DNA of 32,000 bases from Candidatus Pelagibacter sp. HTCC7211. GTDB lineage: Bacteria > Pseudomonadota > Alphaproteobacteria > Pelagibacterales > Pelagibacteraceae. The notes below the pieces were generated by a model that worked only from the letters and a program-made list of their open reading frames with translations, was not told the origin of the DNA and searched no databases. Made by a program: the position numbers and the translations under genes. The stretch lies in the NCBI RefSeq assembly GCF_000155895.1, contig NZ_DS995298.1, positions 1,200,001-1,232,000 of the forward strand, written 5' to 3'. Each line of letters opens with the position of its first letter. The first letter of the stretch is position 1. Below, one piece after another: positions 454-31,120 of the stretch.

Positions 454-456
454 AAA

Positions 457-4594: not shown

Positions 4595-4629
4595 ATTTGT
4601 AAATTAATTATTATTTGTAATTTAGTTTT

Positions 4630-4655
4630 AAAAAAAGGGGGCAATAAATGCCCCC
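4630..4655 (-). terminator. Rho-independent hairpin (terminator/attenuator) between the binding-protein gene and the ATPase genes
   Basis: Minus strand reads GGGGGCA-UUUAU-UGCCCCC followed by a run of 7 U. It sits 27 nt after the binding-protein stop and 36 nt before the next start. Confidence 0.7.
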
Positions 4656-4681
4656 ATTTTTAAATTTAGATTAACCTTAGG

Positions 4682-16148: not shown

Positions 16149-16496
16149 ATGAAGGGAACAAAAGATTTATTAGAGTTTTGGGAAGATCAAGTGAGGCGTT
16201 CTCATAGTTCTAGTAATTATTTTTTTAGAAAATCTCCATCACATTATCATATGATGTTATTAGTTATGAATTCATATAAAGAAGGTGAAAAATTGTCTGT
16301 CGAAGAACTTAAAACAAAATTATTTAAAACTTCTAGACCCAAATCTGCACTGATAATAAATGAAGCATGTGAAAATAATTTTTTCTATTTAGAAAAAACA
16401 TCATCAGATCAAAGAAAAAAAAATATTAAACCAACACAGGCATTTGTTAAAGAATTTGATGAATACATGGAAAAATTAAAAAATTTAGAACTTTAA
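16149..16496 (+). CDS. Small winged-helix (MarR-like) putative transcriptional regulator
   Basis: 115 aa. Its ATG immediately follows the tdm stop (TAAATG). The pattern LSVEELKTKL...SALIINEACENNFFYLEKTSSDQRKKNIKPT fits an HTH plus D-x-R wing. No close family member recognised by eye. Confidence 0.45.
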   Translation: MKGTKDLLEFWEDQVRRSHSSSNYFFRKSPSHYHMMLLVMNSYKEGEKLSVEELKTKLFKTSRPKSALIINEACENNFFYLEKTSSDQRKKNIKPTQAFVKEFDEYMEKLKNLEL

Positions 16497-16530: not shown

Positions 16531-17418
16531 CTATTTTCTATTTAACACTTCTTTTACTGTTTCGCCCATAACAGATGGATTTTTAGAAATTGTTACACCG
16601 CATTCTTTTAAAAGTTCTACCTTTTCAACTGCACTTTCTCCGTAAGCTGAAACAATTGCACCAGCATGACCCATCACTCTTCCTTTTGGAGCGGTTAATC
16701 CTGCAATGTAACCTACTATAGGTTTTTTCATATTTTCTTTTGCAAATTCCCCAGCTGCTACTTCTTGAGGTCCACCAATCTCACCAATCATTAAAATCAA
16801 ATCTGTTTCATCGTCAGTTTCAAATTTTTCAATGATGTCTCTAAAAGAACTTCCATTAATTGGATCACCTCCAATACCAACACTTGTCGAAATCCCAATA
16901 TTTAAATCCATTAATTGTTGTGCCGCTTCATATCCTAAAGTTCCAGATCTACTAATAATTCCAACTCTACCCTCCTTGTAAATATGACCAGGCATAATTC
17001 CCAACATTGATTTACCAGGACTTATTATTCCTGCACAATTAGGTCCTACTAAGGTCATTTTTTCTTTTCTAGAATATCTTCGCATGTATCGTTTTATTCT
17101 GATCATGTCATGTGAAGGAATTCCATCAACAATAGCAACACATGTTTTTATTCCTGCATCTGCAGCTTCCATTGCAGAGTCTGCTGCAAAAGCTGGGGGA
17201 ACAAATAATATTGAAGCAGTGGCGCCTGTTTCTTGCACAGCATCTTTTACTGTGTTGAATACTGGTTTATCTAAATGTTTTTGACCACCTTTTCCAGGTG
17301 TTACTCCTCCAATAACGTTAGATCCATATTTTATCATTTCTTCAGCATGAAAAGTTCCCATTTTTCCAGTGAACCCTTGAATTAATATTTTCGTATCTTT
17401 TTGAATAATTACTGCCAT
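16531..17418 (-). CDS. mtkB: Malate--CoA ligase (malate thiokinase) alpha/small subunit, SucD-like
   Basis: 295 aa. ILIQGFTGKMGTFHAEE, GGVTPGKGG and the phosphohistidine loop MGHAGAIV match the succinyl-CoA ligase alpha family. Assigned to Mtk because it is operonic with malyl-CoA lyase. Confidence 0.7.
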   Translation of the reverse strand: MAVIIQKDTKILIQGFTGKMGTFHAEEMIKYGSNVIGGVTPGKGGQKHLDKPVFNTVKDAVQETGATASILFVPPAFAADSAMEAADAGIKTCVAIVDGIPSHDMIRIKRYMRRYSRKEKMTLVGPNCAGIISPGKSMLGIMPGHIYKEGRVGIISRSGTLGYEAAQQLMDLNIGISTSVGIGGDPINGSSFRDIIEKFETDDETDLILMIGEIGGPQEVAAGEFAKENMKKPIVGYIAGLTAPKGRVMGHAGAIVSAYGESAVEKVELLKECGVTISKNPSVMGETVKEVLNRK

Positions 17419-17422
17419 TTAA

Positions 17423-18583
17423 TTATTTTAATGCTGCAACAGCTTTATTTGCAGCATCCTCCAAAGTATTTGCCTCAATATAATTTAATTTGCTATCTTG
17501 AAGAATTTTATTTCCTTTTTCAACATTGGTTCCTGCTAATCTAATTACTAATGGAACTTTTATTTCAATTTTTTCAAGTGCTTGAACTATTCCTTCAGCA
17601 ACCCAATCACATCTATTAATTCCAGCAAAAATATTTACTAAAATTACTTTTACTTTTTTATCCATAGTAATTAGCCTAAAAGCCTTTACTATTTTTTCTG
17701 GAGTTGCTCCTCCACCGACATCAAGAAAATTAGCTGGTTCTCCACCAGCTAATTTTATCATATCCATAGATGCCATGGCTAGCCCAGCACCATTAATTAT
17801 ATTTCCAATATTTCCCTCTAAACTTACATAATTTAAGCCTCTATCTGATGCAAAAACTTCTTTTTCATCTTCTTGGGTTTTATCTCTTAATTCAGAAACT
17901 TTATCTCTTCTGAACATTGCATTATTATCAAAACTCATTTTACAATCTAAAGCTAAAATTTGTTTTTGTTTTGAAATCACTAATGGGTTTACTTCAACCA
18001 TTGTAGCATCTAGTTCACTAAATGCTTTAGCACATCCAATAATTGTTTCTGAAGCTCTTCTAATTAACTCTGGCTCAATACCCAATCCAAATGCTAGTTC
18101 TCTTGCTTGAAAATTTTGAATACCAACTGCAACTTCAATTTTTGATCTTATGATTGTTTCTGGTTTTTCTTTAGCAATTTCTTCAACACTCATTCCTCCT
18201 TCTGTTGAGGCCACAACCATTATACTTTCAGAGCTTCTATCAAAAACTAAACCAAGATATAATTCTTTTTCAATATCAGATGCTTCTTCAATGTAAATTC
18301 TATTTACTATTTTACCCTCAGGTCCAGTTTGATTTGTAACAAGTTTTTTTCCTAATAATTTGTCTGTTGCCTGAGCAACTTCTAATGGTGAATTACACAC
18401 AATTATTCCACCTGCTTTTCCTCTTGCACCAGAATGAATTTGTGCTTTAACAACCCACTTTGATCCACCAATTTCTCTTGCTTTATTTTCTGCGGTCTCA
18501 GGACTATAAACAATTCCTCCTCTTGGTATTGTTACTCCAAAACTAGATAAAATTTCTTTTGCTTGATACTCGTGTATATCCAT
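17423..18583 (-). CDS. mtkA: Malate--CoA ligase (malate thiokinase) beta/large subunit, SucC-like
   Basis: 386 aa with the ATP-grasp N-terminus MDIHEYQAKEILSSFGV...VVKAQIHSGARGKAGG, typical of SucC/MtkA. 2-nt spacer to mcl and 4-nt spacer to mtkB. Confidence 0.7.
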   Translation of the reverse strand: MDIHEYQAKEILSSFGVTIPRGGIVYSPETAENKAREIGGSKWVVKAQIHSGARGKAGGIIVCNSPLEVAQATDKLLGKKLVTNQTGPEGKIVNRIYIEEASDIEKELYLGLVFDRSSESIMVVASTEGGMSVEEIAKEKPETIIRSKIEVAVGIQNFQARELAFGLGIEPELIRRASETIIGCAKAFSELDATMVEVNPLVISKQKQILALDCKMSFDNNAMFRRDKVSELRDKTQEDEKEVFASDRGLNYVSLEGNIGNIINGAGLAMASMDMIKLAGGEPANFLDVGGGATPEKIVKAFRLITMDKKVKVILVNIFAGINRCDWVAEGIVQALEKIEIKVPLVIRLAGTNVEKGNKILQDSKLNYIEANTLEDAANKAVAALK

Positions 18584-18585
18584 AC

Positions 18586-19524
18586 TTATTTTTTATTAAT
18601 TAGTTTATCAATGTTTACAACATTCTCTGCCATTCTAGCAGATGCTGCATCTATCATTCTACCATCAAGTTGAGCTGCACCCTTACCTTCTTTTGCAGCT
18701 TTTTCTAATTCTTCTATAATTCTTTTTGCTTTATTTACTTCTGTTTCAGGAGGAGAAAAAACATCATTAGCGAGTTCAATTTGAGATGGATGAATTGCCC
18801 ACTTACCTTCTATACCAATAGCGGCACCACGTTTTGCTGCTGCAATGTAAGCATCAGGATCATTAAAATCACCAAATGGTCCATCAATTGCTCTTAATCC
18901 ATAAGCTCGACAAGTCATCGCTAATTCTGATAATCCATGATGCCACTGATCTCCTGGGTAATCTGGATTTAATCCTCCAATCACAACTGTTCTTGCTCTT
19001 AAACTGGCAGCATAGTCTGCAACACCAAAATGTAATGCCTCTAGTCTTTCACTTGAGCCTGCAATTTCTTTTATATTTGACATTCCTAATGCAGTTTCAA
19101 TTAAACACTCAATGCCAATTTTATTTTTTAATTTTTTATTAGTCTCGATTTGCGTCAACAAACAATCAACCATATAAACATCGCTAGCAGTTCCAGCTTT
19201 TGGTACTAAGATAGTGTCGATATTTTCTCCAGCTTGTTCAACAAGTTCTACTAAATCACTATACATATAATGTGTATCAAGACTATTAATCCTCACTGAA
19301 ATAGTTTTGCCATTATTTCTCCAATTCATCTCATTGAGAGCTTTTATAATATTTGCTCTGGCTGATATTTTGTCATTTGGAGAAACTGCATCTTCTAAAT
19401 CTAAAAAAATATAATCAGCTGAAGAATTTAATGCTTTTTCAAACATTTTAGGTGAAGATCCTGGAACAGCTAATTCACTTCTTTGAAGTCTAGATTTGGC
19501 CGGTTTATAGAATTTATGGCTCAT
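18586..19524 (-). CDS. mcl: Malyl-CoA lyase (HpcH/HpaI aldolase / citrate lyase beta-like family)
   Basis: 312 aa. LQRSELAVPGSSPKMFEKALNSSADYIFLDLEDAVSPNDK...RINSLDTHYMYSDLVELVE closely parallels the N-terminus of methylotroph malyl-CoA lyase as I recall it. Confidence 0.75.
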   Translation of the reverse strand: MSHKFYKPAKSRLQRSELAVPGSSPKMFEKALNSSADYIFLDLEDAVSPNDKISARANIIKALNEMNWRNNGKTISVRINSLDTHYMYSDLVELVEQAGENIDTILVPKAGTASDVYMVDCLLTQIETNKKLKNKIGIECLIETALGMSNIKEIAGSSERLEALHFGVADYAASLRARTVVIGGLNPDYPGDQWHHGLSELAMTCRAYGLRAIDGPFGDFNDPDAYIAAAKRGAAIGIEGKWAIHPSQIELANDVFSPPETEVNKAKRIIEELEKAAKEGKGAAQLDGRMIDAASARMAENVVNIDKLINKK

Positions 19525-19667: not shown

Positions 19668-20996
19668 ATGTCAAGTTTACCGAACAAAGCTAAAGTAGTT
19701 ATAATTGGTGGTGGAATTCACGGTTTAAGTACAGCTTGGAAACTTTCTGAAACTTATAAAAATCCAGGTGACATTGTCGTCTTAGAAAAAAAAGATATCG
19801 CTGCAGGGGCAAGTGGTATTGCATGTGGTGTTGTTAGAAATAATTATTTTCAACCGGCTATGAGAGAGTTAATGGCTCATTCAGTTTCTGTCTGGGAGAG
19901 CGACCCTAAGGCATTTAAATATAATGCTGTAGGTTATTTACAAATTTCTCCAGAAGTAATGCACGAAGATGTTGCAACGATTTATGAACAGCAAAAAGCT
20001 ATTGGTTACGATTCAGAATTTATTGAAGGTGAAAAAGATTGTATGAATTACATGAAAGGTATGTTTGATGATTGGCAAGCTCAAGGTATCACCTCAGTTC
20101 TTCATGAAAAAAAAGGTGGTTACGCTTTTAATAAAGATTCGATTAAAGCTCTTGAAAATAAATCTACTTCGAATGGTGTTCAAGTTATTAAAGGTGTCAA
20201 AGTTACAGGATTTAAAAGAGGAAGTAACAGTAAAGCTGTTACAGGTGTTGAAACTGATAATGGAACAATAGAATGTGAACAGGTTGTGGTTGGAGCGGGT
20301 CCGTGGGCTAGAGATTTTTGGAATATGTTAGAACTTCCTAAAACTGCAAGCATCAAAGGTAAAGATGGTAAAATGCATGTAACAGATATGTGGACATATT
20401 GGATGTTACAAGAGGGTGTGATTGGTGTTGAGCCTGATTTTTTAAAAATGAACAATGGACAACAGCCACCAGTTATTCATGTAGACTCTACTGCTCCATT
20501 ATATTCAGATAAAACTAAAAAATTAATCACAGATAAAATTTGGGGAATTTATTACAAACCTGATATTGAAGGTTTAGGTGTTCAAGGTGGAACTTCACCT
20601 TACATAGTAGATAAACATTTTGATCAAGTGAATGTTGATCCATATGGAATAGAGTCACCAGAATACCAAACTACAGAGGCGTTTAATGATATGTGGTGCT
20701 CTGCTTTAGCTCATTGTCAAAAAAGATTTGAAGGAAAATCTGATCTTTACAGAAAAGGTCCATCAGGTGGTCTTGGGTGTATGACGCCAGATTCTTTTCC
20801 GATCTTTGATAGATTTTTAGAAAACGTTTACATGATCGCTGATGCAAACCATGGGTATAAAATGATTGGTGTAGGTGAACTTGTTGCAAAAGAAATTCTT
20901 GGAACTGAGAGCGATCTTTTAAAACCTTTTAGATTCAACCGATACGAGAAAGGTGAACTTCACCCTACTTCAAACAGTCCATTCCCTTGGAGCTAA
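19668..20996 (+). CDS. FAD-dependent oxidoreductase, DAO family (sarcosine oxidase beta / MgdA-like), stand-alone
   Basis: The track ORF starts at a TTG (19656); the ATG at 19668 gives MSSLPNKAKVVIIGGGIHGLSTAWKL (a GxGxxG dinucleotide fold). About 442 aa with SoxB-like length and layout. No delta, alpha or gamma subunit genes lie nearby. Confidence 0.8.
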   Translation: MSSLPNKAKVVIIGGGIHGLSTAWKLSETYKNPGDIVVLEKKDIAAGASGIACGVVRNNYFQPAMRELMAHSVSVWESDPKAFKYNAVGYLQISPEVMHEDVATIYEQQKAIGYDSEFIEGEKDCMNYMKGMFDDWQAQGITSVLHEKKGGYAFNKDSIKALENKSTSNGVQVIKGVKVTGFKRGSNSKAVTGVETDNGTIECEQVVVGAGPWARDFWNMLELPKTASIKGKDGKMHVTDMWTYWMLQEGVIGVEPDFLKMNNGQQPPVIHVDSTAPLYSDKTKKLITDKIWGIYYKPDIEGLGVQGGTSPYIVDKHFDQVNVDPYGIESPEYQTTEAFNDMWCSALAHCQKRFEGKSDLYRKGPSGGLGCMTPDSFPIFDRFLENVYMIADANHGYKMIGVGELVAKEILGTESDLLKPFRFNRYEKGELHPTSNSPFPWS

Positions 20997-21009
20997 TTTT
21001 ATAAGTAAT

Positions 21010-21034
21010 ACTTATAAAAATTATATATAATTAT
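21010..21034 (+). promoter_or_regulatory. Promoter-like block ACTTATAAAAATTATATATAATTAT upstream of the GS-like gene (copy B of a shared motif)
   Basis: 23/25 identity to 13791-13815. TATAAT at 21026-21031, about 85 nt before the ATG. Overlaps the perfect palindrome TATAAGTA-A-TACTTATA at 21000-21016. Confidence 0.4.
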
Positions 21035-21116
21035 TATAGCCAACAAAAATTAGACACTAATTAAATTTTGAGCTAACGTTTCTCCATTAAAAAATTTATT
21101 CTTAAGGGGGAATGCA

Positions 21117-22586
21117 ATGACTGACCTAGAAAAACACGTTAACCAACCAGGTAGAACCAAATTAGTTAAACAAGTTAGAGCTAAAATAAATGAACTTGGT
21201 ATTGAATATATTTTTTTTCAATTCATATCTGTTACAGGTAGAGTTGTTGGGAAAGGAATTCCAACTGATCACTGGGAAAGAACATGTGAAAAAGGCTTTC
21301 AATTAGTATATGGAGCAACAGCAAACTTATTTACTGATCGACACGGCAATTACATCGGTTATGGACCTGAAGCAAAAGAACTTGTAGGTATACCTGATCC
21401 AGAAACTTTTTGCCAATTACCTTGGGATAAAAAAGTAGCAAGAGTATTTGTAACTTGTTTTAGAAACAGAGAAGAAAGAGATAATCCTGGTGCTCATTTA
21501 ACTTCAGATTGCAGAGGAAATTTAAGAATACATGCTCAAGAATTTAAGAAAAAACATGGTTATCAACTAAGAGTTGGAACTGAACCAGAGATGATGTGGC
21601 TAACAAAAAATGAAGATGGAACACCGACTGGAAAAGGTTTTTCTAAACCATATTGTTATCACATAGATCAATTCGAGTCTTTAAGACCAGTATTTATGCA
21701 AGTTATGAAATATGCGAGAGCTATGGGTCTTGACATGATTCAAGGTGATCATGAGGATGCTCCAGGACAATTAGAATTAAACTGGATGTATGATGATGTT
21801 TTAAGAAATGCAGATAGACTATCAACCTACAGACAAATTTGTGCTCAAGTTGCAAGAGAATTTAATCTAATTGCATGTTTCATGACAAAACCATTTATGG
21901 GAGTATCTGCAAGTGGATGTCATACTAATATGTCTTTATGGACAGGTGGAAAAGATAAAGTGAATAAATTAGGACATAAATCTCTACCCGCAATGGATGA
22001 GGTATTTACTTATGTTGAAGGTGGGAAAAATACATTTATGCCAGATACTAAAGATGTTCAATTACCAGGTAAAGTTGGTTTAAAAGCTATTGGTGGTGTT
22101 ATGAAACACCTTGGTGCTTTAACAGCAATTGGATCTTCAACAGTAAACTCATATAGAAGATTATGGGATCAAGGTTTTTGGGCGCCAGTTTATGCGGACT
22201 GGGGATACCAAAATAGAACTTGTGGATTAAGAGTATCAGCACCTGGTAGATTTGAGTACCGTTCAGTTGACTCTATGCATAATCCCTATTTGATGGGATC
22301 AGGATTGTTAAAATGTTTTGATGATGGGATATCAAACAATATCGATCCAGGAAAACCAGAGTCGCGAAGTATGTATGAAGCTCAAGCAGCTGGTAAAGAA
22401 GTTAAAAAATTACCTTTAAGTCTTGGTCAAGCACTTGACCGTTTAGCTGAGGATGAAGTGATTAAATCAGCTATGCCAGATGAAATGTATAAAGTCTTTC
22501 ATTGGTATAAAAATGATGAATGGGAAAGATTTTTAGGTGCTACAACTCAATGGGATCTAGATACATATCTTGATTGTCTACCATAG
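21117..22586 (+). CDS. Glutamine synthetase-family ligase (type III/GmaS-like, atypically long), substrate unknown
   Basis: 489 aa. GS catalytic motifs are present: GTEPEMMW, GDHEDAPGQLELNW, FMTKPFMGVSASGCHTNMSLW, NSYRRL. Strong SD AAGGGGGA upstream. Confidence 0.85.
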   Translation: MTDLEKHVNQPGRTKLVKQVRAKINELGIEYIFFQFISVTGRVVGKGIPTDHWERTCEKGFQLVYGATANLFTDRHGNYIGYGPEAKELVGIPDPETFCQLPWDKKVARVFVTCFRNREERDNPGAHLTSDCRGNLRIHAQEFKKKHGYQLRVGTEPEMMWLTKNEDGTPTGKGFSKPYCYHIDQFESLRPVFMQVMKYARAMGLDMIQGDHEDAPGQLELNWMYDDVLRNADRLSTYRQICAQVAREFNLIACFMTKPFMGVSASGCHTNMSLWTGGKDKVNKLGHKSLPAMDEVFTYVEGGKNTFMPDTKDVQLPGKVGLKAIGGVMKHLGALTAIGSSTVNSYRRLWDQGFWAPVYADWGYQNRTCGLRVSAPGRFEYRSVDSMHNPYLMGSGLLKCFDDGISNNIDPGKPESRSMYEAQAAGKEVKKLPLSLGQALDRLAEDEVIKSAMPDEMYKVFHWYKNDEWERFLGATTQWDLDTYLDCLP

Positions 22587-22617
22587 GTCTTAGATAAAAT
22601 AGAAGGGGTAAAATAAT

Positions 22618-23562
22618 ATGTGTGGAATTGCAGGTTTAATTCATAGAGGTAAATCTTCTAATGTTGGAAGCGAACTACAAGGTATGCTTCAAGCGTTAAA
22701 ACATAGAGGAGAAGATTCAACTGGTTACGCTTTATATGGTGATACAGATGGTAAAAACTTTATTATGCGTTTTAAAGTTGGAGAAAATGTTGGTGAAGGA
22801 AGTTCATCAATTATGGAGGATGTTTCGGTATATGACGAGAGAAAAAAGATAGTTGATGAGACCTTAAGAGAATTAGGTGCAAGAATTATAAAAGAAGAGA
22901 GAACCCTTCCCTACTCATTAAGATATGAAATCAGTTATGATAAGAAAGATTTATTGGATTTTTCTCAAAGAATCGAAAGTATTCCAGGTGTAGAGATACT
23001 TTCCATGGGTAAATCTTTAGAGGTAATTAAAGATCTTGGGAATGCTAAAGCTGTCTGTGATCGATACTCTTTAGATAAGCTTGTAGGAACTCACGCTATT
23101 GGTCATGCTAGGATGGCAACAGAGTCTGGGGTAGATATTAAATCTGCACACCCTTTTTGGGGCTATCCATTCAGCGATGTATCAGTAGTTCATAACGGTC
23201 AACTAACAAATTATTGGAACAACAGAAGAGCTTTAGAAAATAAAGGTATGAGATTTATGTCTGAATGTGACTCTGAGTTAATAGCAGTTTATATTGCTCA
23301 AAAAATGAGGGAAGGAGCTAGCCTTGCAGAAGGAATGAAAGAGTCTTTAACTGGACTTGATGGGGTATTTACTTATTTTGTTGCAACAAAAGACTCATTA
23401 GGAATGGCAAAAGATACTATGGCTGCTAAACCACTAGTTCTTTACGAATCAGATAACTTAGTCGCAATGGGTTCAGAAGAAATAGCGATCAGATCAGTTC
23501 TTCCACAAGAAATTGATACGTATGATCCATTTGATGGAGAGGTAAAAGTATGGCAAATCTAA
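22618..23562 (+). CDS. Class-II (Ntn) glutamine amidotransferase domain protein, GltB N-terminal-like / MgsA-like (module 1)
   Basis: 314 aa starting MCGIAGL (nucleophile Cys2), with GHARMATES and VVHNGQLTNY motifs. SD GAAGGGG upstream. Confidence 0.85.
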   Translation: MCGIAGLIHRGKSSNVGSELQGMLQALKHRGEDSTGYALYGDTDGKNFIMRFKVGENVGEGSSSIMEDVSVYDERKKIVDETLRELGARIIKEERTLPYSLRYEISYDKKDLLDFSQRIESIPGVEILSMGKSLEVIKDLGNAKAVCDRYSLDKLVGTHAIGHARMATESGVDIKSAHPFWGYPFSDVSVVHNGQLTNYWNNRRALENKGMRFMSECDSELIAVYIAQKMREGASLAEGMKESLTGLDGVFTYFVATKDSLGMAKDTMAAKPLVLYESDNLVAMGSEEIAIRSVLPQEIDTYDPFDGEVKVWQI

Positions 23563-24404
23563 AAACAAACGAGAAAAAATCTAAAGCCCAGTCAATGGGT
23601 ATGCACACAGAAGTTTTAACAGGAAGAACTCAGCAAAAGTTTTTTAATCCTGATGAGGCTGAAAACTTTTATTATTTTGGGACATATGATGTTGATTTTA
23701 ATAAAAGAACAGATCTTGATGTAAAAGATATGACAGCTCCCGAGGCTAACAAAGAAATTGATAAATTAATGAGTGAAGGTTATGGAACTATTGTAATTAA
23801 AAATCCTCAAGGAAAACATAGCTTAGGCGTTGGTATACTTAATAAACTAAACTTAATATTTGAAGGAAGTTTAGGATATTTTGGTATGGGTTCATGTGAT
23901 GGTCCAACGGTTAGAATTAATGGTAGAGTTGGTTGGTCCTGTGCTGAAAATTTAATGGCTGGTAAAGTTGTTATTGAGAAAAATGCAGGCTCATGTTTTG
24001 GTGCAGCTATCAGAGGCGGTGATTTAATTTGTAAAGGTAGTGTTGGTGCAAGAACTGGAATTGATATGAAAGGTGGAACTATCATTATTGGTGGTGACGC
24101 TGGTGCATTTACTGGATTTATGATGCAAAGAGGTAGAATAATTATCCTTGGAGACGTTGGTATAAACTTGGGCGACTCTATGTATGATGGGACAATTTTC
24201 ATAGGTGGAAGTATTGGTTCATATGGTAGTGATGCTGTAGATGCTGAATTGACTGTAAGTGACCAAGATTGGTTAAAAAGAAAGTTAAAAGTGGCTGAAA
24301 TTGGTGAAAATTTTGATGTAAGTAAAATGAAAAAAATTGTAGCTGGTAAAAAACTTTGGAATTACGATAATTTAGAACCTACAGAGAAGAAGGGAGCAAT
24401 ATAA
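23550..24404 (+). CDS. GXGXG-motif beta-helix protein, GltB C-terminal-domain-like / MgsB-like (module 1), with about 50-aa N-terminal extension
   Basis: 284 aa with repeated G-x-G-rich turns (GRVGWSCAENLMAGKVVIEKNAGSCFGAAIRGGDLICKGSVGARTGIDMKGGTIIIGGDAGAFTG). 13-nt overlap with the upstream gene and SD GGAGAGG. Confidence 0.8.
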   Translation: MANLKTNEKKSKAQSMGMHTEVLTGRTQQKFFNPDEAENFYYFGTYDVDFNKRTDLDVKDMTAPEANKEIDKLMSEGYGTIVIKNPQGKHSLGVGILNKLNLIFEGSLGYFGMGSCDGPTVRINGRVGWSCAENLMAGKVVIEKNAGSCFGAAIRGGDLICKGSVGARTGIDMKGGTIIIGGDAGAFTGFMMQRGRIIILGDVGINLGDSMYDGTIFIGGSIGSYGSDAVDAELTVSDQDWLKRKLKVAEIGENFDVSKMKKIVAGKKLWNYDNLEPTEKKGAI

Positions 24405-25813
24405 TGCCTAAGAAAAAAACAAAAAAGAAAAATGGTAATGGAAGTGTTGGTGGAAAAGCTGACGTTCATGCACATGAAGATGGAAAAAGAAACAAAAGCT
24501 TATTAGGTCATAATGCTATTTTTACTCCTGAGGTAATTGACGATATTCATATCAAGTCTCAGTTAGGAAGATACAGAATGCGTGGAATGGCATTAATGAA
24601 AAAAATTCCGACATTTGATGATCTAGTTTTCTTACCTGGTACACTTACAAGATTTGTAATCGAAGGCTATAGAGAAAAATGTGAAACTAAAACTGTAATT
24701 GGTCCAAGATGTGAAAACCCTATTGAGCTTGATATACCTGTTTATATTACTGGTATGAGTTTTGGGGCACTTTCTTATGAAGCAAAAACTGCTTTAGCAA
24801 GAGGAGCTACAATGGCTGGAAGCGCTACTTGTTCTGGAGAAGGTGGAATGATACCTGATGAAAGAAGATATTCTGAAAAATGGTATTACCAGTGTATTCA
24901 ATCAAGATACGGTTTTAATCCTCATCATGCTCAACTTGCGGATGGAATTGAAGTTTTCATCGGCCAAGGTCAAAAAGTTGGTATGGGTGGACACTTAATG
25001 GGTCAAAAAGTAACTGACCAAGTAGCTGAAATGAGATCATTGCCTTCTGGTATTGATCAAAGATCTCCTGCTAGACACCCTGACTGGTTGGGTCCAGATG
25101 ACTTAGCTCTTAAGGTTGAAGAATTAAGACAATTAACAAAAAATAAAGTACCAATTCAATTGAAGCTTGGAGCATCAAAAGTTTATGATGATGTTCGTAT
25201 GGCTGCAAAATGTGACCCTGACTCTATCTATCTAGATGGTATGGAAGGTTCTACTGGAGCTGGACCCCATATTGCAGCTGCAAATACTGGTATCCCAGGA
25301 ATTGCTGCAATCAGAGAAGCAAGAAGAGCAATTGATGATGTTGGTAAAACTGGAAAAGTAACTTTAATTTATGCTGGTGGTGTTAGAGATGGTGCTGATA
25401 TGGCAAAAGCTTTAGCATTAGGTGCTGATGCAATTGCAATTGGTACTGGATCAATGATCGCTTTAAACTGTAATAAAGACATCCCAGAAGCTAATTTTGA
25501 AAAAGAAATGGGTGTAAAAGCTGGTGAATGTTATCACTGTCATACAGGACGTTGTCCAGTTGGTGTTGCAACACAGGATCCTAAACTAAGAGCAAGATTA
25601 AATCCTGATGACGCTGCACTAAGAGTTTACAACTATCTTCACTCAATGACTTTAGAAGCTCAGCTTTTAGCAAGAGCGTGTGGTAAAACTAACATCCATT
25701 CTCTAGAGCCAGAAGATTTAGCTGCACTTACTTCTGAGGCATCAGCTTTAGCAAAAGTTCCTTTAGCCGGTACAAACTATACAGTTGGTGTAGATAACTA
25801 TCATAAAATTTAG
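24404..25813 (+). CDS. FMN-dependent glutamate synthase-like subunit (GltB FMN domain / MgsC-like, module 1) retaining a Cys-rich Fe-S-type motif
   Basis: 469 aa. GMSFGALS, IGQGQKVGMGG, YLDGMEGSTGAG and GECYHCHTGRCPVGVATQDP are present. TAATG overlap with the upstream gene. Lys-rich N-terminus MPKKKTKKKNGNG. Confidence 0.85.
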   Translation: MPKKKTKKKNGNGSVGGKADVHAHEDGKRNKSLLGHNAIFTPEVIDDIHIKSQLGRYRMRGMALMKKIPTFDDLVFLPGTLTRFVIEGYREKCETKTVIGPRCENPIELDIPVYITGMSFGALSYEAKTALARGATMAGSATCSGEGGMIPDERRYSEKWYYQCIQSRYGFNPHHAQLADGIEVFIGQGQKVGMGGHLMGQKVTDQVAEMRSLPSGIDQRSPARHPDWLGPDDLALKVEELRQLTKNKVPIQLKLGASKVYDDVRMAAKCDPDSIYLDGMEGSTGAGPHIAAANTGIPGIAAIREARRAIDDVGKTGKVTLIYAGGVRDGADMAKALALGADAIAIGTGSMIALNCNKDIPEANFEKEMGVKAGECYHCHTGRCPVGVATQDPKLRARLNPDDAALRVYNYLHSMTLEAQLLARACGKTNIHSLEPEDLAALTSEASALAKVPLAGTNYTVGVDNYHKI

Positions 25814-25821
25814 GGGTAACT

Positions 25822-26238
25822 ATGGTTAAGAAAAAAAATAAAAAAAAAGTCACAAAGTCAAAGGCTGCTAAAGACCAACAATTAGGCAAGAAAAAAGAAA
25901 CAGCTAGAGAAAAAATGATTGGTCAATCAATCGGTTATAGATATGACGTTAATCTTCTTCCTGACTATACAAAGATAACCCCGTTTCTTAAAAAATATGT
26001 AGAAGCAATGGGATGGGATGATCTTAACTGGTTAGAAGATGTTCATATGGGTTATGAAGAAGGTAGACCAGCAGTGTTTTGTAGAAATGCAAATGGCTGG
26101 GTAACTATTCCAAGTTCAATCAAACTTCCAAACAATCAGCAAGATAGAGATATGATTGCAAGAGAACTTTTAGTTAAGTTTCAAATGTCTCCAAAACACC
26201 CTCTTGTTGATTTGAAAAAAGCTTATCTAAAATTTTAA
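25822..26238 (+). CDS. Hypothetical protein with poly-Lys N-terminus, last gene of module 1
   Basis: 138 aa (MVKKKNKKKVTKSKAAK... then a Trp/Asp-rich globular part). SD AGGGG 8 nt upstream. An 8-nt spacer from the FMN subunit gene, followed by a hairpin. No family recognised. Confidence 0.6.
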   Translation: MVKKKNKKKVTKSKAAKDQQLGKKKETAREKMIGQSIGYRYDVNLLPDYTKITPFLKKYVEAMGWDDLNWLEDVHMGYEEGRPAVFCRNANGWVTIPSSIKLPNNQQDRDMIARELLVKFQMSPKHPLVDLKKAYLKF

Positions 26239-26266
26239 ATCTACAATTATAAGTTGATTATTTTTT

Positions 26267-26295
26267 AAAAACCTAGTGTTCATACTAGGTTTTTA
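26267..26295 (+). terminator. Candidate terminator/attenuator hairpin between module 1 and amt
   Basis: Perfect 11-bp stem AAAAACCTAGT / ACTAGGTTTTT with the 6-nt loop GTTCAT. The U-run is partly inside the stem and the flanks are symmetric (A-run before, T-run after). Confidence 0.5.
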
Positions 26296-26365
26296 AGTAT
26301 TCTTTTATTTGTATCGAATCATTTTCTTTTATAGGATTTCAAAAAACTAATATGGGAGAGATAAA

Positions 26366-27766
26366 ATGACTGATCAGTTAGGCGCTCTCACAACCATATT
26401 TACAGAATTTTACTACTGGGTAACAGTGGTACTGATGTTTTTAATTCACGTCGGTTTCTGTATGTATGAAGTTGGAGCGTCAAGATACAAACACCATCAA
26501 CATACCTTAATGAAAAATACAATGCTTATACCTTTGGTAACAGTAACTTGGTTTTTATTTGGTTGGTGGATTTATTGGGCTTTTCCAACAGGACCAGGAA
26601 TTGCTCCATCAATTATGACAGAAAGTACCGGGCTAGTTTTAGGTGGAGGATTTGGAGGAAATGATCTTGCTAATCCAACTAATGCTCTTATGGCAATTAA
26701 TCTTAACGACCATATAATGGGTGTTTTCTGGGCAGCATTCTTGTTATTTTCATGGACGGCTGCTTCTATTGTTTCAGGGGCTGTTATCGAAAGAATAACA
26801 ACTTTTGCATTTGGAGTTTTAGCAATTGCGATTGGATCTGTTTTCTGGTCGATAGATGCTTCATGGGGATGGCATTTTGATGGATGGATGCTTAAAATTT
26901 TAGGATATCATGATGCTTATGCGTCAGGTGTAATTCACGCAATAGCAGGTGGATTTGCACTTGGTGTTCTTATGGTTTTAGGACCTAGAATTGGAAAATT
27001 TGCATCAAATGGAGAACCTAGAAATATAGGACCACGAAATCCTTGGCTAGTTACTATTGGATTATTTTTAATTTATACTGGTTTCTGGGGATTTTATGCG
27101 GCATGTAATGTTCCAATATATGACCTTGGACCTGAGTATGGAATGGAAGGAGTAACATTCTGGACAGCAACTAACATTTACTTAACACCTACTACATTAA
27201 GTGGAATAACTATGAATTTCTTAATGTCGTTATCAGGTGGATTGTTAGCTGGATATGTTATTGCAAAAGGTGATCCTTTCTGGACTTACTCAAGTGGGCT
27301 AGCAGGTATAATATGTGCATCAGCTGGAAATGACTTATATCATCCAATTCAAGCATTGATTATTGGTATGATTGGTGTTGTGATTTCTTACAAACTTCAT
27401 TATTGGGTTGAACGGAAGTTCAAAATTGATGATGCAGTTGGAGCAGTAGCTGTGCATGGTTATGCTGGTTTTATTGGACTTGTAATTTGTGGATTTGTTT
27501 TAAATGGCTACCCAGCATCTGGTTACAGTGTTGGCGCTATGTGGGACGGATCAACATATGCAACAATTAATCCATTAGGACAATTCTTAGGAGCGATAAT
27601 AATGTTCTTAGTTCTTGGACTAATACCAGGCTACATCATAGCTAAGATACTAAACGGTATGGGTAAATTAAGAATCCCTCGTGAAGTAGAGATAGCTGGA
27701 TTAGACTATGAAACAATGGAATCTGCTAAAGAAGATGAAAAAGCAGTTTCATCGGCAACCAGGTAA
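26366..27766 (+). CDS. amt: Ammonium/methylammonium transporter, Amt family
   Basis: 466 aa, about 11 TM. Both conserved pore histidines sit in Amt contexts (AYASGVIHAIAGGFALG and DDAVGAVAVHGYAGFIG). SD GGGAGAG upstream. Confidence 0.88.
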   Translation: MTDQLGALTTIFTEFYYWVTVVLMFLIHVGFCMYEVGASRYKHHQHTLMKNTMLIPLVTVTWFLFGWWIYWAFPTGPGIAPSIMTESTGLVLGGGFGGNDLANPTNALMAINLNDHIMGVFWAAFLLFSWTAASIVSGAVIERITTFAFGVLAIAIGSVFWSIDASWGWHFDGWMLKILGYHDAYASGVIHAIAGGFALGVLMVLGPRIGKFASNGEPRNIGPRNPWLVTIGLFLIYTGFWGFYAACNVPIYDLGPEYGMEGVTFWTATNIYLTPTTLSGITMNFLMSLSGGLLAGYVIAKGDPFWTYSSGLAGIICASAGNDLYHPIQALIIGMIGVVISYKLHYWVERKFKIDDAVGAVAVHGYAGFIGLVICGFVLNGYPASGYSVGAMWDGSTYATINPLGQFLGAIIMFLVLGLIPGYIIAKILNGMGKLRIPREVEIAGLDYETMESAKEDEKAVSSATR

Positions 27767-27777
27767 AGGAGAAAAAT

Positions 27778-28008
27778 ATGGCTACAGTAACAAACTGGAT
27801 AGATCATCTAAATAAACCTGCAGAAGAGGTTGCTGGATCGGTTTATCCTGGAGCAGGATCTAGTGAATTTATACTAGTTCTATTGTTAATTGTTGTATGG
27901 ATTGGATGGAGTGTCATTACAGATAAATCTGAAAGAGAAGAACTTGAAAGATTATCTCGAAAAAGACACGGTGCAAACGACCATAAAAGCAATATTACCG
28001 ATTGGTAA
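27778..28008 (+). CDS. Small single-pass membrane protein with charged C-terminal tail, coupled to amt
   Basis: 76 aa with TM helix FILVLLLIVVWIGWSVI, then DKSEREELERLSRKRHGANDHK. Canonical SD AAGGAG at 27766-27771, 6 nt before the ATG. Only 11 nt separate it from the amt stop, and a strong terminator follows. Confidence 0.6.
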   Translation: MATVTNWIDHLNKPAEEVAGSVYPGAGSSEFILVLLLIVVWIGWSVITDKSEREELERLSRKRHGANDHKSNITDW

Positions 28009-28023
28009 TTAAATAAATAATTT

Positions 28024-28056
28024 GGGCGCTACTTAATTGTAGCGCCCTTTTTTTTT
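28024..28056 (+). terminator. Rho-independent terminator of the amt / small-protein unit
   Basis: GGGCGCTAC-TTAATT-GTAGCGCCC (9-bp GC-rich stem) followed by nine T. It starts 16 nt after the stop at 28008. Confidence 0.85.
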
Positions 28057-28065
28057 GATTTAAAT

Positions 28066-28218
28066 ATGACAGATGAAGATAAAAAAGTATTAAGACCATC
28101 GAAGATGAGAGGTGTAGTATTTCCAAAAGCTAAATACGGTGTGATAGCTGCTATAATCATCATTGTAGTAGCTAATGTTATCTACTATAAGGATTTTTTA
28201 ATTTCTTTAATAAACTAA
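28066..28218 (+). CDS. Possible 50-aa small membrane protein (unsupported by SD)
   Basis: My translation is MTDEDKKVLRPSKMRGVVFPKAKYGVIAAIIIIVVANVIYYKDFLISLIN, with one hydrophobic helix. It fills most of the gap between the terminator and mgsA. No SD, and it is too short for the ORF track. Confidence 0.25.
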   Translation: MTDEDKKVLRPSKMRGVVFPKAKYGVIAAIIIIVVANVIYYKDFLISLIN

Positions 28219-28230
28219 ACCAAAAAAATT

Positions 28231-29115
28231 ATGTGTGGAATTGTTGGCATCTACTTAAAAACAAAAAAATATGAAAAAAGTTTGGGTAAGATGTTGTCTG
28301 GAATGCTCAATAATATGGAGTCTAGAGGTCCTGATAGTGCTGGATTTGCAATTTATAAAAATGAAGAAAAAAAAATTTTTAAATACTCATTATGTATTGG
28401 TGATTTAGATTTCAATAAATTTAAAAAAGAAATCTCAAAAAAAATTAATAAATCTAAATTAAATCAATATTCAGATCACGTAATTCTTAAAACCCCGATA
28501 GAGCCTAAAACCGTTATAAAAATTATTAATAATAGTTTTCCAGAAATCTCACTGGTTGGTTATGGAAATTCAATTGAAATTTTTAAACAAGTTGGAAACC
28601 CAAAAGATGTAGTTAAAAAATTTAAATTAGATAGTTTTAGTGGTACCCATGGAATTGGTCACACCAGAATGGCAACAGAAAGTGCCATAACAACAGATGG
28701 TTCTCATCCCTATTCTACTGGAAAAGATGAGTGTTTAGTACACAATGGATCATTATCAAATCATAACAATCTTAGAAGAAAACTTATAAAAAAAGGTAAC
28801 ATTTTTAATTCTGAAAATGATACTGAAGTTGCAGCAGGTTATGTTTCAAATAGTTTGTCAAATAAGAAATCATTAAAAGATACTTTGGTGTCAGGTTTAA
28901 AAGACTTAGATGGATTTTATACATTTATTACTGGTACAAAAAAAGGATTTGCAGTTGTTAGAGATGAAATAGCTTGTAAACCGGCTGTCATAGCTGAAAC
29001 AAAAAACTATGTAGCAATTGCATCTGAATTTCAAGCGATGGCTCATTTGCCAGATGTAAATAGTGCAAAAATTTTTGAACCAGAACCTGGTATTGTTTAT
29101 TCTTGGGGAAATTAA
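28231..29115 (+). CDS. mgsA: N-methylglutamate synthase subunit A-like class-II glutamine amidotransferase (module 2)
   Basis: 294 aa starting MCGIVGI, with GHTRMATES and LVHNGSLSNH. First gene of an mgsA-mgsB-mgsC-gmaS-ordered set. Confidence 0.7.
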   Translation: MCGIVGIYLKTKKYEKSLGKMLSGMLNNMESRGPDSAGFAIYKNEEKKIFKYSLCIGDLDFNKFKKEISKKINKSKLNQYSDHVILKTPIEPKTVIKIINNSFPEISLVGYGNSIEIFKQVGNPKDVVKKFKLDSFSGTHGIGHTRMATESAITTDGSHPYSTGKDECLVHNGSLSNHNNLRRKLIKKGNIFNSENDTEVAAGYVSNSLSNKKSLKDTLVSGLKDLDGFYTFITGTKKGFAVVRDEIACKPAVIAETKNYVAIASEFQAMAHLPDVNSAKIFEPEPGIVYSWGN

Positions 29116-29798
29116 TGAAATTAGATTTAAAGAAATTAAAATTAAGAGAAGTAAATGAAAAATTACAAAGTTTAGATCGTAAACAAAATGATAGAAATTT
29201 TACAATAGTTAATCCAGAGGGAAATCATGCTCTTTGTGCAGGGTTAACAGATGAGATAAATATAAATATTAAAGGACATGTGGGTTATTACTGTGCTGGA
29301 ATGAATCAAAAAGCTCAAATTACTATTGATGGAAACGTGGGTACTGGTGTGGCTGAAAATATGATGTCAGGAAAGGTTCATGTTAAAGGTAATGCATCCC
29401 AATCAGCTGGTGCTACCGCACATGGAGGGCTATTAATAATTGATGGTGATGCTAGTTCAAGATGTGGAATTTCAATGAAAGGAATTGATATTATTGTAAA
29501 AGGATCAGTTGGACATATGTCTGGTTTTATGTCTCAATCAGGCAATATGGTAGTTTGCGGTGATGCTGGTGAGGCATTAGGTGATAGTTTATATGAAACT
29601 AACATATATATAAGAGGTAAAGTTAAATCACTTGGTGCAGATTGTGTTGAAAAAAAAATGGATAAAAATCATATTAAAAAACTTAATTCACTTTTAAAAG
29701 ACGCAAGTATTAAAAATCTTAAAGCTGAAAGTTTTAAAAGATACGGTTCAGCAAGAAAATTATATAATTTTAAAATTGACAATGTATCAAGCTACTAA
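29115..29798 (+). CDS. mgsB: N-methylglutamate synthase subunit B-like GXGXG protein (module 2)
   Basis: The track ORF starts at a TTG (29103). The ATG at 29115 forms the same TAATG stop-start overlap seen in module 1. GNVGTGVAENMMSGKVHVKGNASQSAGATAHGGLLIIDGDASSRCG beta-helix repeats. Confidence 0.7.
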   Translation: MKLDLKKLKLREVNEKLQSLDRKQNDRNFTIVNPEGNHALCAGLTDEININIKGHVGYYCAGMNQKAQITIDGNVGTGVAENMMSGKVHVKGNASQSAGATAHGGLLIIDGDASSRCGISMKGIDIIVKGSVGHMSGFMSQSGNMVVCGDAGEALGDSLYETNIYIRGKVKSLGADCVEKKMDKNHIKKLNSLLKDASIKNLKAESFKRYGSARKLYNFKIDNVSSY

Positions 29799-29800
29799 AT

Positions 29801-31120
29801 ATGAAAAAAAATAATAAAACACATCCTCGTCAGTCTTGGACTTTTGACAAATATACAAATTCTGAAATAAGACGAGCGGCAGAAACTGGAATATATGATA
29901 TCAGGGGCGGTGGATCAAAAAGGAAACTTCCGCATTTTGATGACTTATTATTCTTAGGTGCATCAATGTCTAGATATCCTTTAGAAGGTTACCGAGAAAA
30001 ATGCACAACTAATGTTACACTTGGAACTAAATATGCAAAAAAACCATTAGAGTTAGATATTCCAATTACGATTGCAGGTATGAGCTTTGGAGCTTTATCT
30101 GGTCCAGCTAAAGAAGCACTAGGTAGAGGTGCTAGTGCTGCTGGAACTTCTACAACAACTGGTGATGGAGGAATGACCCCTGAAGAAAGAGGACAATCAA
30201 AATATTTAGTTTATCAGTTATTACCCTCTAGATATGGCATGAATCCTGATGATTTAAGAAAAGCCGATGCAATAGAAGTTGTTATTGGCCAGGGTGCAAA
30301 ACCTGGTGGTGGTGGAATGTTATTAGGTCAAAAAATTAATGATCGAGTTGCAAAAATGAGAACTTTGCCAAAAGGTGTAGATCAAAGATCAGCGTGTAGA
30401 CATCCTGATTGGACAGGACCAGATGATTTAAAAATTAAAATTTTAGAATTAAGAGAAATTACCAAATGGAAGGTTCCAATATTTATTAAAATTGCTGGAG
30501 CTAGACCATATTATGATACCGCTTTAGCTGTAAAAGCAGGAGCAGATGTTGTTGTTCTTGATGGAATGCAAGGAGGAACTGCTGCAACACAAGAAGTATT
30601 TATTGAAAATGTTGGTCAACCTACCCTTGCTTGTATTAAGCCAGCTGTTGATGCACTTCAAGATTTAAATTCACACCGCGAAGTACAATTAGTTATTTCT
30701 GGAGGTATTAGAAATGGAGGTGACGTTGCTAAAGCTTTAGCCTTGGGGGCTGATGCTGTATCAATTGGAAGTGCAGCTATGATTGCACTTGGTGATAATG
30801 ATCCTAAATGGGAAAAAGAATATAATATGCTTGGGACAACTGCAGGTGCGTATGATGATTGGCATGAAGGAAATGATCCAGCTGGAATTTCAACTCAAAA
30901 TCCAAAATTAATGAAAAGATTAGATCCTGTTAAAGCAGGTAAAAGATTAACTAATTATTTAAAAGTAATGACGCTTGAAGCGCAAACTCTTGCAAGGGCT
31001 TGTGGAAAAAATAGCCTTCACAATCTTGAACCTGAAGATTTATGTGCTTTAACAGTAGAAGCAGCAGCTATGGCTGGAGTTCCCTTAGCTGGTACGAACT
31101 GGATACCTGGAAAAAAATAA
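29801..31120 (+). CDS. mgsC: N-methylglutamate synthase subunit C-like FMN protein (module 2), lacking the Cys motif
   Basis: 439 aa. GMSFGALS, IGQGAKPGGGG and VLDGMQGGTAAT are present. The position of the module 1 Cys motif reads AYDDWHEGNDPAGISTQNP. Confidence 0.7.
   Translation: MKKNNKTHPRQSWTFDKYTNSEIRRAAETGIYDIRGGGSKRKLPHFDDLLFLGASMSRYPLEGYREKCTTNVTLGTKYAKKPLELDIPITIAGMSFGALSGPAKEALGRGASAAGTSTTTGDGGMTPEERGQSKYLVYQLLPSRYGMNPDDLRKADAIEVVIGQGAKPGGGGMLLGQKINDRVAKMRTLPKGVDQRSACRHPDWTGPDDLKIKILELREITKWKVPIFIKIAGARPYYDTALAVKAGADVVVLDGMQGGTAATQEVFIENVGQPTLACIKPAVDALQDLNSHREVQLVISGGIRNGGDVAKALALGADAVSIGSAAMIALGDNDPKWEKEYNMLGTTAGAYDDWHEGNDPAGISTQNPKLMKRLDPVKAGKRLTNYLKVMTLEAQTLARACGKNSLHNLEPEDLCALTVEAAAMAGVPLAGTNWIPGKK

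Follow-up and report, generated by a model that had tools for sequence, protein, structure and literature searches.

The closest described systems to the genes treated here are those of the N-methylglutamate pathway in Methylocella, Methyloversatilis, Ruegeria, Aminobacter and Rhizobium. In our reference cluster, on a plasmid of Aminobacter niigataensis, the gene order is mgsA-mgsB-mgsC-glnT/gmaS-mgdABCD and serine-cycle genes adjoin; the canonical Rhizobium plasmid region of 25 kb holds tdm, tmm, dmm (DUF3445, PDR, DmmA and an aminomethyltransferase), gmaS-mgsCBA and mgdABCD. Since 2017, dimethylamine (DMA) has been regarded as the genetic bottleneck of the marine methylated-amine pathway, with SAR11 and other abundant clades carrying tmm, tdm and gmaS without dmmDABC, and this bottleneck has been invoked to explain DMA-derived marine aerosols. 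All SAR11 are reported to be without dmmDABC, in agreement with a preliminary description of the DNA studied here. This DNA, called the window below, is a stretch of 32,000 nucleotides (nt) from Candidatus Pelagibacter sp. HTCC7211 (contig NZ_DS995298.1, positions 1,200,001 to 1,232,000), and it encodes two sets of a glutamine synthetase (GS)-like ligase, an N-terminal nucleophile (Ntn, class II) amidotransferase, a GXGXG protein and a flavin mononucleotide (FMN) protein. Set 2 is, judged by its sequence, a canonical mgsABC-gmaS cluster, and set 1 is the subject of this report.

We found that set 1, which has the same four folds as the N-methylglutamate pathway, recurs with one gene order far beyond chance, and homology places it as a distant paralogous family, a variant of the GmaS/N-methylglutamate synthase type. 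Its linkage to methylated-amine genes is strong and holds across lineages, and a predicted role in methylated-amine metabolism is well supported. We tentatively suggest, with somewhat less than even confidence, that set 1, together with a DAO-family flavoprotein and an Amt-family transporter, would be a dedicated methylated-amine module that acts downstream of the trimethylamine N-oxide (TMAO) demethylase Tdm and links DMA to N-methylglutamate. The existence of the module had already been annotated in HTCC1062 (SAR11_1304-1310). By gene order and annotation, the orthologues in that strain are SAR11_1302 (tmoX), 1303 (tdm), 1304 (“monomeric sarcosine oxidase”), 1305 (glnT), 1308 (gltB2), 1310 (amt), 1313-1315 (glxBCD) and 1316 (glnT), and only SAR11_1313-1316 have been assigned to methylamine oxidation. 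Beyond this annotation, the literature searched leaves set 1 uncharacterised; no assignment of SAR11_1304-1309 and no description of a DMA route other than Dmm came to light in it. Few unassigned gene sets of the island are as conserved or as abundant as set 1.

Two related gene sets in the window

The preliminary description had reported two full sets of these genes, and all of them were recovered at the following positions, together with the flanking flavoprotein and transporter genes.

19668-20996 (alternative start 19656), plus strand: DAO-family flavin adenine dinucleotide (FAD) flavoprotein (Pfam DAO, 2.3e-35)
21117-22586, plus strand: set-1 GS-like ligase (LIG1), 489 amino acids (aa) (Gln-synt_C, 1.2e-76)
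22618-23562, plus strand: set-1 Ntn (class II) amidotransferase (GAT1; GATase_6/7)
23550-24404, plus strand: set-1 GXGXG subunit (PF01493)
24404-25813, plus strand: set-1 FMN (Glu_synthase) subunit (PF01645, 1.4e-88)
25822-26238, plus strand: orphan protein u138, 138 aa (about 130 aa in the family), with no Pfam or NCBIfam match
26264-26297, plus strand: terminator-like hairpin with a 15-pair stem, closing the set-1 operon
26366-27766, plus strand: divergent Amt-family transporter (PF00909, 8.4e-53; below both NCBIfam Amt cut-offs)
28231-29115, 29103-29798 and 29801-31120, plus strand: mgsA, mgsB and mgsC of set 2, canonical N-methylglutamate synthase
31155-32000, plus strand: gmaS, the set-2 ligase, truncated by the end of the window

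The five set-1 genes overlap or lie 8–31 nt apart and are therefore taken as one operon, with u138, as first described, the last gene before the hairpin. Alignments of the DAO protein with its homologues begin at residue 4–7, which makes 19668 (ATG) the more likely start codon.

Set 2 has the order mgsA-mgsB-mgsC-gmaS and shows 53, 57, 83 and 62% identity to MgsA, MgsB, MgsC and GmaS of the methylotroph Aminobacter, which bears out its initial identification; a full-length SAR11 orthologue of its ligase matches the solved RhGmaS (7cql) with an E value of 1.7e-173. The set-1 proteins reach 35, 33, 49 and 31% identity to the same four references, and the FMN subunit has 49–53% identity to MgsC proteins. 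The two sets had been estimated by eye to be about half identical. This holds for the FMN subunits (50–52%) but not for the ligases (26–29%), the amidotransferases (31–35%) or the GXGXG subunits (approximately 35%).

With GmaS and MgsABC, set 1 has in common the catalytic and pocket residues, a flap Trp, an MgsC-type insertion and the genomic company of tdm, mgd and amt. The architecture differs: the order amidotransferase, GXGXG, FMN is that of MgsABC, but the ligase precedes this trio in set 1, whereas it follows the trio in canonical clusters. Set 1 also adds the orphan subunit of about 130 aa, an extension of the GXGXG subunit, a longer ligase, four invariant Cys in the FMN subunit and, frequently, a DAO partner.

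Distribution and genomic context of set 1

Two samples of loci were compared. The SAR11 sample consisted of the best 80 loci of a ligase scan over a genome collection of species representatives, all of them SAR11, and the non-SAR11 sample of 55 loci with a G+C content of 41–68% (31–36% in the window); 13 of the latter had at least 4 kb on both sides of set 1 and are referred to as well flanked. All close relatives of the window's genes lay in Pelagibacteraceae genomes. More than 160 independent loci carried the module, its gene order unchanged. In SAR11, this order was essentially invariant: tmoX divergent from tdm, then a 115-aa open reading frame (ORF), DAO, ligase, amidotransferase, GXGXG, FMN, the 138-aa protein and amt. 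Among the SAR11 loci with enough upstream sequence, tdm lay upstream of set 1 in 65 of 66, the DAO gene upstream of the ligase in 66 of 66, and the 115-aa ORF after tdm in 63 of 66 (70–97% identity; absent from non-SAR11 loci). All 67 SAR11 loci with enough downstream sequence had the five core genes and the adjoining amt.

The five core genes were likewise complete in all 32 non-SAR11 contigs that reached far enough. The gene for the orphan protein is an obligate fifth gene of the module (32/32 non-SAR11 and 67/67 SAR11 loci), and in loci reaching far enough the FMN gene was never found without it. The 13 well-flanked non-SAR11 loci contained tdm in 8 cases, DAO in 8, an amt adjoining set 1 in 8, mgdA in 4 and canonical mgsC in 2, and at least one methylated-amine gene (tdm, mgdABCD or mgsABC) was present in 12 of them. 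The preliminary description had named occurrence independent of tdm and of methylamine genes as a result that would speak against its proposal, and this is not the pattern observed. The DAO gene, found within the flanks of 29 of all 55 non-SAR11 loci, is a frequent but not obligatory partner.

A co-directional cluster of DAO, set 1 and a soxBDAG/mgd-like operon, in places preceded by a GntR gene, was found in five of the non-SAR11 loci; the operon has 59–62% identity to Rhizobium MgdA in L102, L103 and L107, as opposed to 40% in L086 and L115. Canonical gmaS and/or mgsABC stand directly beside set 1 in SAR11, in L098 (G+C 45%) and in L135 (G+C 57%). A tblastn search with the Rhizobium Dmm proteins, which covered the window and about 167 set-1 loci, found no homologue of DmmA, of the DUF3445 haem subunit or of the PDR reductase.

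The set-1 ligase

The ligase has 75–80% identity to proteins of SAR324, Arenicellales and other marine lineages (among them contigs of 1.5–5.9 Mb), 76–86% in the comparison across phyla, and 28–32% identity to GmaS of SAR11 and Aminobacter. It falls below every NCBIfam cut-off, scoring 290 bits against a cut-off of 469.6 for the GmaS model TIGR03105 (“type III glutamate--ammonia ligase”) and 224 bits against 429 for the GlnA model TIGR00653. In a small neighbor-joining tree with few references, of the kind that the preliminary description had suggested, it formed its own clade outside GmaS, sister to ligases of Paracoccus and Ruegeria plasmids. At 489 aa it is indeed longer than GmaS, by approximately 45 aa, and two invariant insertions are specific to it. 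The first is the loop ANLFxDRxGxYIGYGPE, in a region that in GS reaches into the neighboring active site; the second, of about 24 residues after SLWTGG, is common to the Paracoccus/Ruegeria ligases.

All seven methylamine-pocket residues of RhGmaS are present in the ligase and invariant in its family: Y181, Q209, D211, E213, E220, N222 and K46, the counterparts of RhGmaS Y147, Q175, D177, E179, E186, N188 and K30'. Deprotonation of the amine has been proposed for the pocket Asp of RhGmaS, while its Glu resolves the tetrahedral intermediate. Trp355, also invariant, takes the position of the GS flap Glu (E327 in Escherichia coli), as in GmaS. The pocket inspection that had been proposed therefore gives a GmaS-type site. 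N176 of RhGmaS, beside the catalytic Asp, is replaced by Gly in the ligase and in its Paracoccus/Ruegeria relatives. At the position of GS Asp50' in the ammonium-binding loop, a region where the family carries its ANLFxDRxGxYIGYGPE loop, the two alignments diverge, HMMER placing D74 there and MAFFT V64/Y65; the AlphaFold2 (AF2) model, built on a shallow alignment, has a mean predicted local distance difference test (pLDDT) score of 49, too low to place the insertions.

These relatives bear on a further possibility, that set 1 serves some other small amine unrelated to TMAO (ethylamine, ethanolamine, aminopropanol or a polyamine fragment) by gamma-glutamylation and subsequent transfer to a glutamate skeleton. 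The Paracoccus/Ruegeria ligases, which at 52–56% identity are the nearest outside the family, belong to gamma-glutamylation clusters of the Ipu/Puu type that handle larger amines; they too have Gly at the N176 position; and a few set-1 loci have hydantoinase or creatinase-like neighbors. PuuABCD of E. coli and the Ipu-like clusters also begin, as is proposed for set 1, with a GS-like ligase acting on an amine. PuuA, however, has only 23–25% identity to the set-1 ligase, and such clusters continue with a P450 or oxidase, an aldehyde dehydrogenase and a type-1 amidotransferase hydrolase, without a glutamate synthase (GOGAT)-like trio or a 130-aa protein. The Paracoccus/Ruegeria clusters hold P450, aldehyde dehydrogenase and gamma-glutamyl hydrolase genes, none of which accompanies set 1, and the recurrent neighbors of set 1 are tdm, tmoXWV, tmm, mgd, mgs and gmaS rather than genes for other amines. 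We consider an unrelated amine improbable.

The amidotransferase, GXGXG and FMN subunits and the orphan protein

The set-1 amidotransferase retains the Cys1 nucleophile and the RGxDS, HNGQLTNY and DSE motifs. The N-terminal extension of about 50 residues that had been noticed in the GXGXG subunit is a feature of every set-1 homologue and is lacking in MgsB. In the FMN subunit, a 17-aa insertion is present that MgsC has and GltB lacks. The substrate loops of the window read GQGQKVGMGG in set 1 and GQGAKPGGGG in set 2, as initially described; across the set-1 family the loop is GQG[QC]KVG[ML]GG, in place of the canonical GQGAKPGGGG, and it is also unlike the 2-oxoglutarate loop of GltB (QGAKPGEGG). 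The poly-Lys N-terminus of the FMN subunit is present in the window but is a trait of the SAR11 versions and not of set 1 as a whole; Lys-rich N-terminal tails (24404-24450 in the FMN subunit and 25822-25900 in the 138-aa protein) were restricted to SAR11.

A four-Cys motif, ALNC...C-x2-C-x4-CPVGVATQ, occurs in all complete copies of the set-1 FMN subunit (88 + 32 clean matches, with two other complete copies consistent), and three of the four Cys align with the 3Fe-4S motif C-x5-C-x4-C of E. coli GltB. We considered these Cys as a hallmark of set 1 that would separate GOGAT from N-methylglutamate synthase, and dropped the idea because the same Cys occur in a subset of MgsC-type subunits with the loop GQGAKPGGGG, namely in seven SAR11 loci in which the trio is followed by gmaS and in L135 (L002, L004, L019, L049, L135, L139, L148 and L150). 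In the MgsC proteins of the window, Aminobacter and Rhizobium, the four positions are D/Y/W/D. An Fe-S cluster may thus be present in some N-methylglutamate synthases and lacking in others.

The Cys alignment is one of the observations that would fit the second hypothesis of the preliminary description, in which set 1 is an archaeal-style split GS-GOGAT that assimilates ammonium from the adjacent Amt. Set 1 has the same domain set as GlnA plus GltB/GltD or a split archaeal GOGAT, amt adjoins it in SAR11 and in most well-flanked loci elsewhere, and the best Protein Data Bank (PDB) match of the ligase, an archaeal GS (1.3e-51), is only slightly ahead of RhGmaS (1.9e-47). Nevertheless, the flap Glu is replaced by Trp and combined with a GmaS-type Asp211, an arrangement with which RhGmaS has an ammonium Km of 8.7 mM, and the ligase scores well below the GlnA cut-off. 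Neither the cluster in the window nor the conserved module contains a gene for a GltD-like electron donor; the insertion is of the MgsC type and the 2-oxoglutarate loop is not that of GltB; and the four-Cys motif, being present in some MgsC-type subunits of mgsABC(-gmaS), is not a GOGAT signature. The nitrogen (N) response points the same way: in the proteome of N-limited HTCC1062, SAR11_1305 and SAR11_1308 fell to 0.67 and 0.66, whereas the separate glnA/gltBD went up. Because set 1 has a GmaS-type active site, no GltD partner, a separate N-responsive glnA/gltBD in the same organism and a context of tdm, mgd and methylated-amine catabolism, ammonium assimilation is disfavored, and we regard it as very improbable.

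The orphan protein remains confined to this family. Its core has about 75% identity between SAR11 and other lineages, and a profile search of 1.84 billion protein cluster representatives returned 305 representatives, mostly fragments and all of the family; the few longer matches look like assembly chimeras. With its AF2 model (mean pLDDT 59.9), Foldseek found nothing in the PDB below E = 1.

A candidate route for dimethylamine

We propose, by analogy of position, that set 1 occupies the place that dmmDABC has in Roseobacter and Rhizobium clusters, which makes it a concrete candidate for the missing DMA step in SAR11. The two systems would act at the same pathway step and have no sequence relationship: DmmDABC uses haem/NADPH oxygenation, whereas for set 1 we propose ATP-dependent gamma-glutamylation and flavin chemistry. 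In the first step, the ligase would couple glutamate with ATP to a small amine, most likely DMA, giving gamma-glutamyl-dimethylamide. The amidotransferase subunit would then free the amine into the GXGXG/FMN complex, where it could condense with enzyme-bound 2-oxoglutarate or iminoglutarate and be reduced by FMNH2 to N,N-dimethylglutamate; this chemistry is modelled on N-methylglutamate synthase and supposes that an iminium with 2-oxoglutarate is formed and a secondary amine accepted. The DAO flavoprotein could strip one methyl group from the resulting tertiary amine to give N-methylglutamate, and MgdABCD could strip the last. In a sub-variant, which our favored reading includes, the DAO flavoprotein would oxidize DMA to monomethylamine (MMA) directly and set 1 would carry MMA to N-methylglutamate.

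DMA is favored as the substrate because set 1 sits where dmm sits in canonical clusters and because the physiology of HTCC1062 requires a DMA step: a 2022 paper reported growth of this strain on TMAO as sole N source, and its authors invoked an unknown Dmm isoenzyme. A doubly methylated intermediate would fit because two demethylases, the DAO flavoprotein and the mgd-like operon, flank set 1. In sulfur-limited HTCC1062 cells, the transcripts of SAR11_1302 (tmoX) and SAR11_1305 both fell about five-fold and were among only 15 genes that changed. Of the preliminary proposal that set 1 fills the dmm gap by a DMA or other amine route, the part on context therefore stands, with tdm, mgd and mgs nearby and dmm absent nearby; the sequence is compatible with either DMA or MMA as the substrate.

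The DAO flavoprotein is itself only distantly related to characterized enzymes. It scored 86 bits against a cut-off of 529 for TIGR01373 (soxB) and 38 bits against 480 for TIGR01377 (monomeric sarcosine oxidase); only its N-terminal FAD half (residues 12-215) aligned to SoxB structures (2gag_B, 6e-16), and the match to PuuB extended over about 50 residues only.

The substrate question gives rise to the main rival reading, which we consider possible but rather doubtful: set 1 could be a second, isofunctional MMA system, leading from gamma-glutamylmethylamide to N-methylglutamate without a role in DMA use and differing from set 2 in affinity, regulation or cofactor, while DMA is excreted or handled by the DAO flavoprotein alone. 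MMA is equally compatible with the ligase sequence because all the pocket residues match the MMA-preferring RhGmaS, and the FMN subunit has the insertion of MgsC and 49–53% identity to it. Mgd-like (soxBDAG-type) genes directly follow set 1 in 7 of the 55 non-SAR11 loci, and the flanks of these 7 lack canonical gmaS/mgsABC. In 54 of 67 SAR11 loci no mgsABC separates amt from gmaS, and there GmaS could be served by the set-1 trio. Earlier authors, moreover, named SAR11_1304 alone as a possible amine demethylase. Against this, the sampled SAR11 genomes, streamlined as they are, all keep both ligases at 26–29% identity, and the window, L098 and L135 carry two complete systems side by side. The co-residence of set 1 with bona fide gmaS/mgsABC in three unrelated lineages argues against simple redundancy. 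Canonical mgsABC also occurs at other sites of SAR11 genomes, so that the set-1 trio is not needed for GmaS. An MMA-only route would need no DAO beyond Mgd, but the DAO gene stands in a single cluster with set 1 and mgd, all in the same direction, and the ligase carries its two invariant insertions and the N176G exchange beside the catalytic Asp.

Several points count against a DMA route through set 1. To our knowledge, N,N-dimethylglutamate has not been described as a bacterial intermediate. The pocket of the ligase is the same as in RhGmaS, which prefers MMA and has a Km of 16 mM for DMA; the model leaves the four Cys of the FMN subunit unexplained; and no DAO gene is present within the flanks of 5 of the 13 well-flanked non-SAR11 loci. 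In carriers other than SAR11, the absence of dmmDABC refers to the set-1 loci, and a preprint on an isolate of the Arenicellales (UBA868) claims a full methylated-amine suite, including that for DMA, without naming the genes. The growth of HTCC1062 on TMAO was weak. Finally, SAR11_1304 was detected in N-limited cells only, so that under N limitation the DAO orthologue goes up while the ligase and FMN orthologues go down, and the genes are not simply co-regulated; SAR11_1310, the amt orthologue, was detected in N-replete cells only.

In its most specific form, the route from DMA would make DAO and set 1 the missing DMA pathway of SAR11, SAR324 and other dmmDABC-less marine bacteria, running through gamma-glutamyl-dimethylamide and N,N-dimethylglutamate so that free MMA is never formed, with the orphan protein and the four-Cys FMN subunit as parts of a new four-subunit N-alkylglutamate synthase; taken as a whole, this version we consider speculative and rather unlikely. 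The set-1 module in any case names specific genes for the DMA step. If set 1 acts on DMA, the bottleneck and the estimates of oceanic DMA turnover made from dmm gene counts need revision. If it is instead a second MMA system, marker surveys based on gmaS undercount methylamine users, and the annotation of set-1 genes as glnT, gltB or mgs (HTCC1062 carries glnT and gltB) needs correcting.

Other features of the window and of the SAR11 island

The window contains the following further features around the two sets.

12766-13710, minus strand: tmoX, divergent from tdm
13821-16148, plus strand: tdm, TMAO demethylase, producing DMA (DUF1989 + GCV_T + GCV_T_C)
16149-16496, plus strand: 115-aa ORF directly after tdm, with no family match
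16531-19524, minus strand: three mtkAB/mcl-like genes (65, 63 and 67% identity to Aminobacter MtkB, MtkA and malyl-CoA (“CoA ester”) lyase)
28024-28047: strong terminator 3' of amt, from a hairpin search

The window Tdm has 54.5% identity to the Tdm of the canonical Rhizobium region. Set 1 had been placed 3.5 kb from tdm, and this distance is correct, tdm ending at 16148 and DAO starting at 19668; the gap is, however, a minority insertion of the mtkAB/mcl-like genes, since in most SAR11 tdm and the 115-aa ORF are followed by DAO directly. Besides the window, the insertion was found in 5 of the 80 SAR11 species loci (L002, L008, L021, L055 and L065). The SAR11 tdm gene itself exists as two deeply divergent alleles in the same position, with approximately 62–69% and 90–95% identity to the window Tdm and a few intermediates at 75–77% (L001-L080).

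The intergenic region between amt and mgsA (27767-28230, 465 nt) is unusually long for SAR11 and contains a second hairpin (28145-28174) in addition to the terminator; a gap of similar length lies upstream of gmaS in SAR11 genomes without the mgsABC trio. The region had no Rfam match, and an Rfam search of the window and the set-1 region found no known RNA family and only terminator-like hairpins.

The mgsABC genes are the variable part of the SAR11 island, being present between amt and gmaS in 13 of 67 loci. SAR11 mgsC occurs in two versions, with approximately 74% and 90–96% identity to the window mgsC, and the latter has 94% identity to a protein labelled Gammaproteobacteria; together with the patchy presence at the amt-gmaS site, this suggests repeated acquisition. 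In two SAR11 single-cell genomes (L094 and L095, 7386-11341), mgsABC lies at another site, where an amine-oxidase-like gene precedes it and gmaS is missing. Because the trio is thus located elsewhere in some single-cell genomes, we dropped the idea that mgsABC is missing from most SAR11 and that GmaS there depends on the set-1 trio.

Unusual arrangements were seen at several other loci. In L110 (750-11438), a set-1-type ligase without the trio has another GS-like gene alongside; soxBDAG-like genes come next, together with genes for an FAD-linked oxidase and a luciferase-like monooxygenase. In L084, from Arenicellales, a different split GOGAT-like set (151-5539) precedes amt, GntR, DAO and set 1; it consists of a 303-aa amidotransferase, a 650-aa fused GXGXG+FMN protein with GltB-type Cys spacing and an 847-aa Fer4_20/Pyr_redox protein. 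In L096 and L097 (577-13800), genes for an ATP-binding cassette transporter and N,N-dimethylformamidase-like proteins (DMF_alpha, DMFA2_C) lie directly upstream of mgsABC-gmaS-PALP, an arrangement that places an enzyme releasing DMA or MMA beside the canonical pathway.

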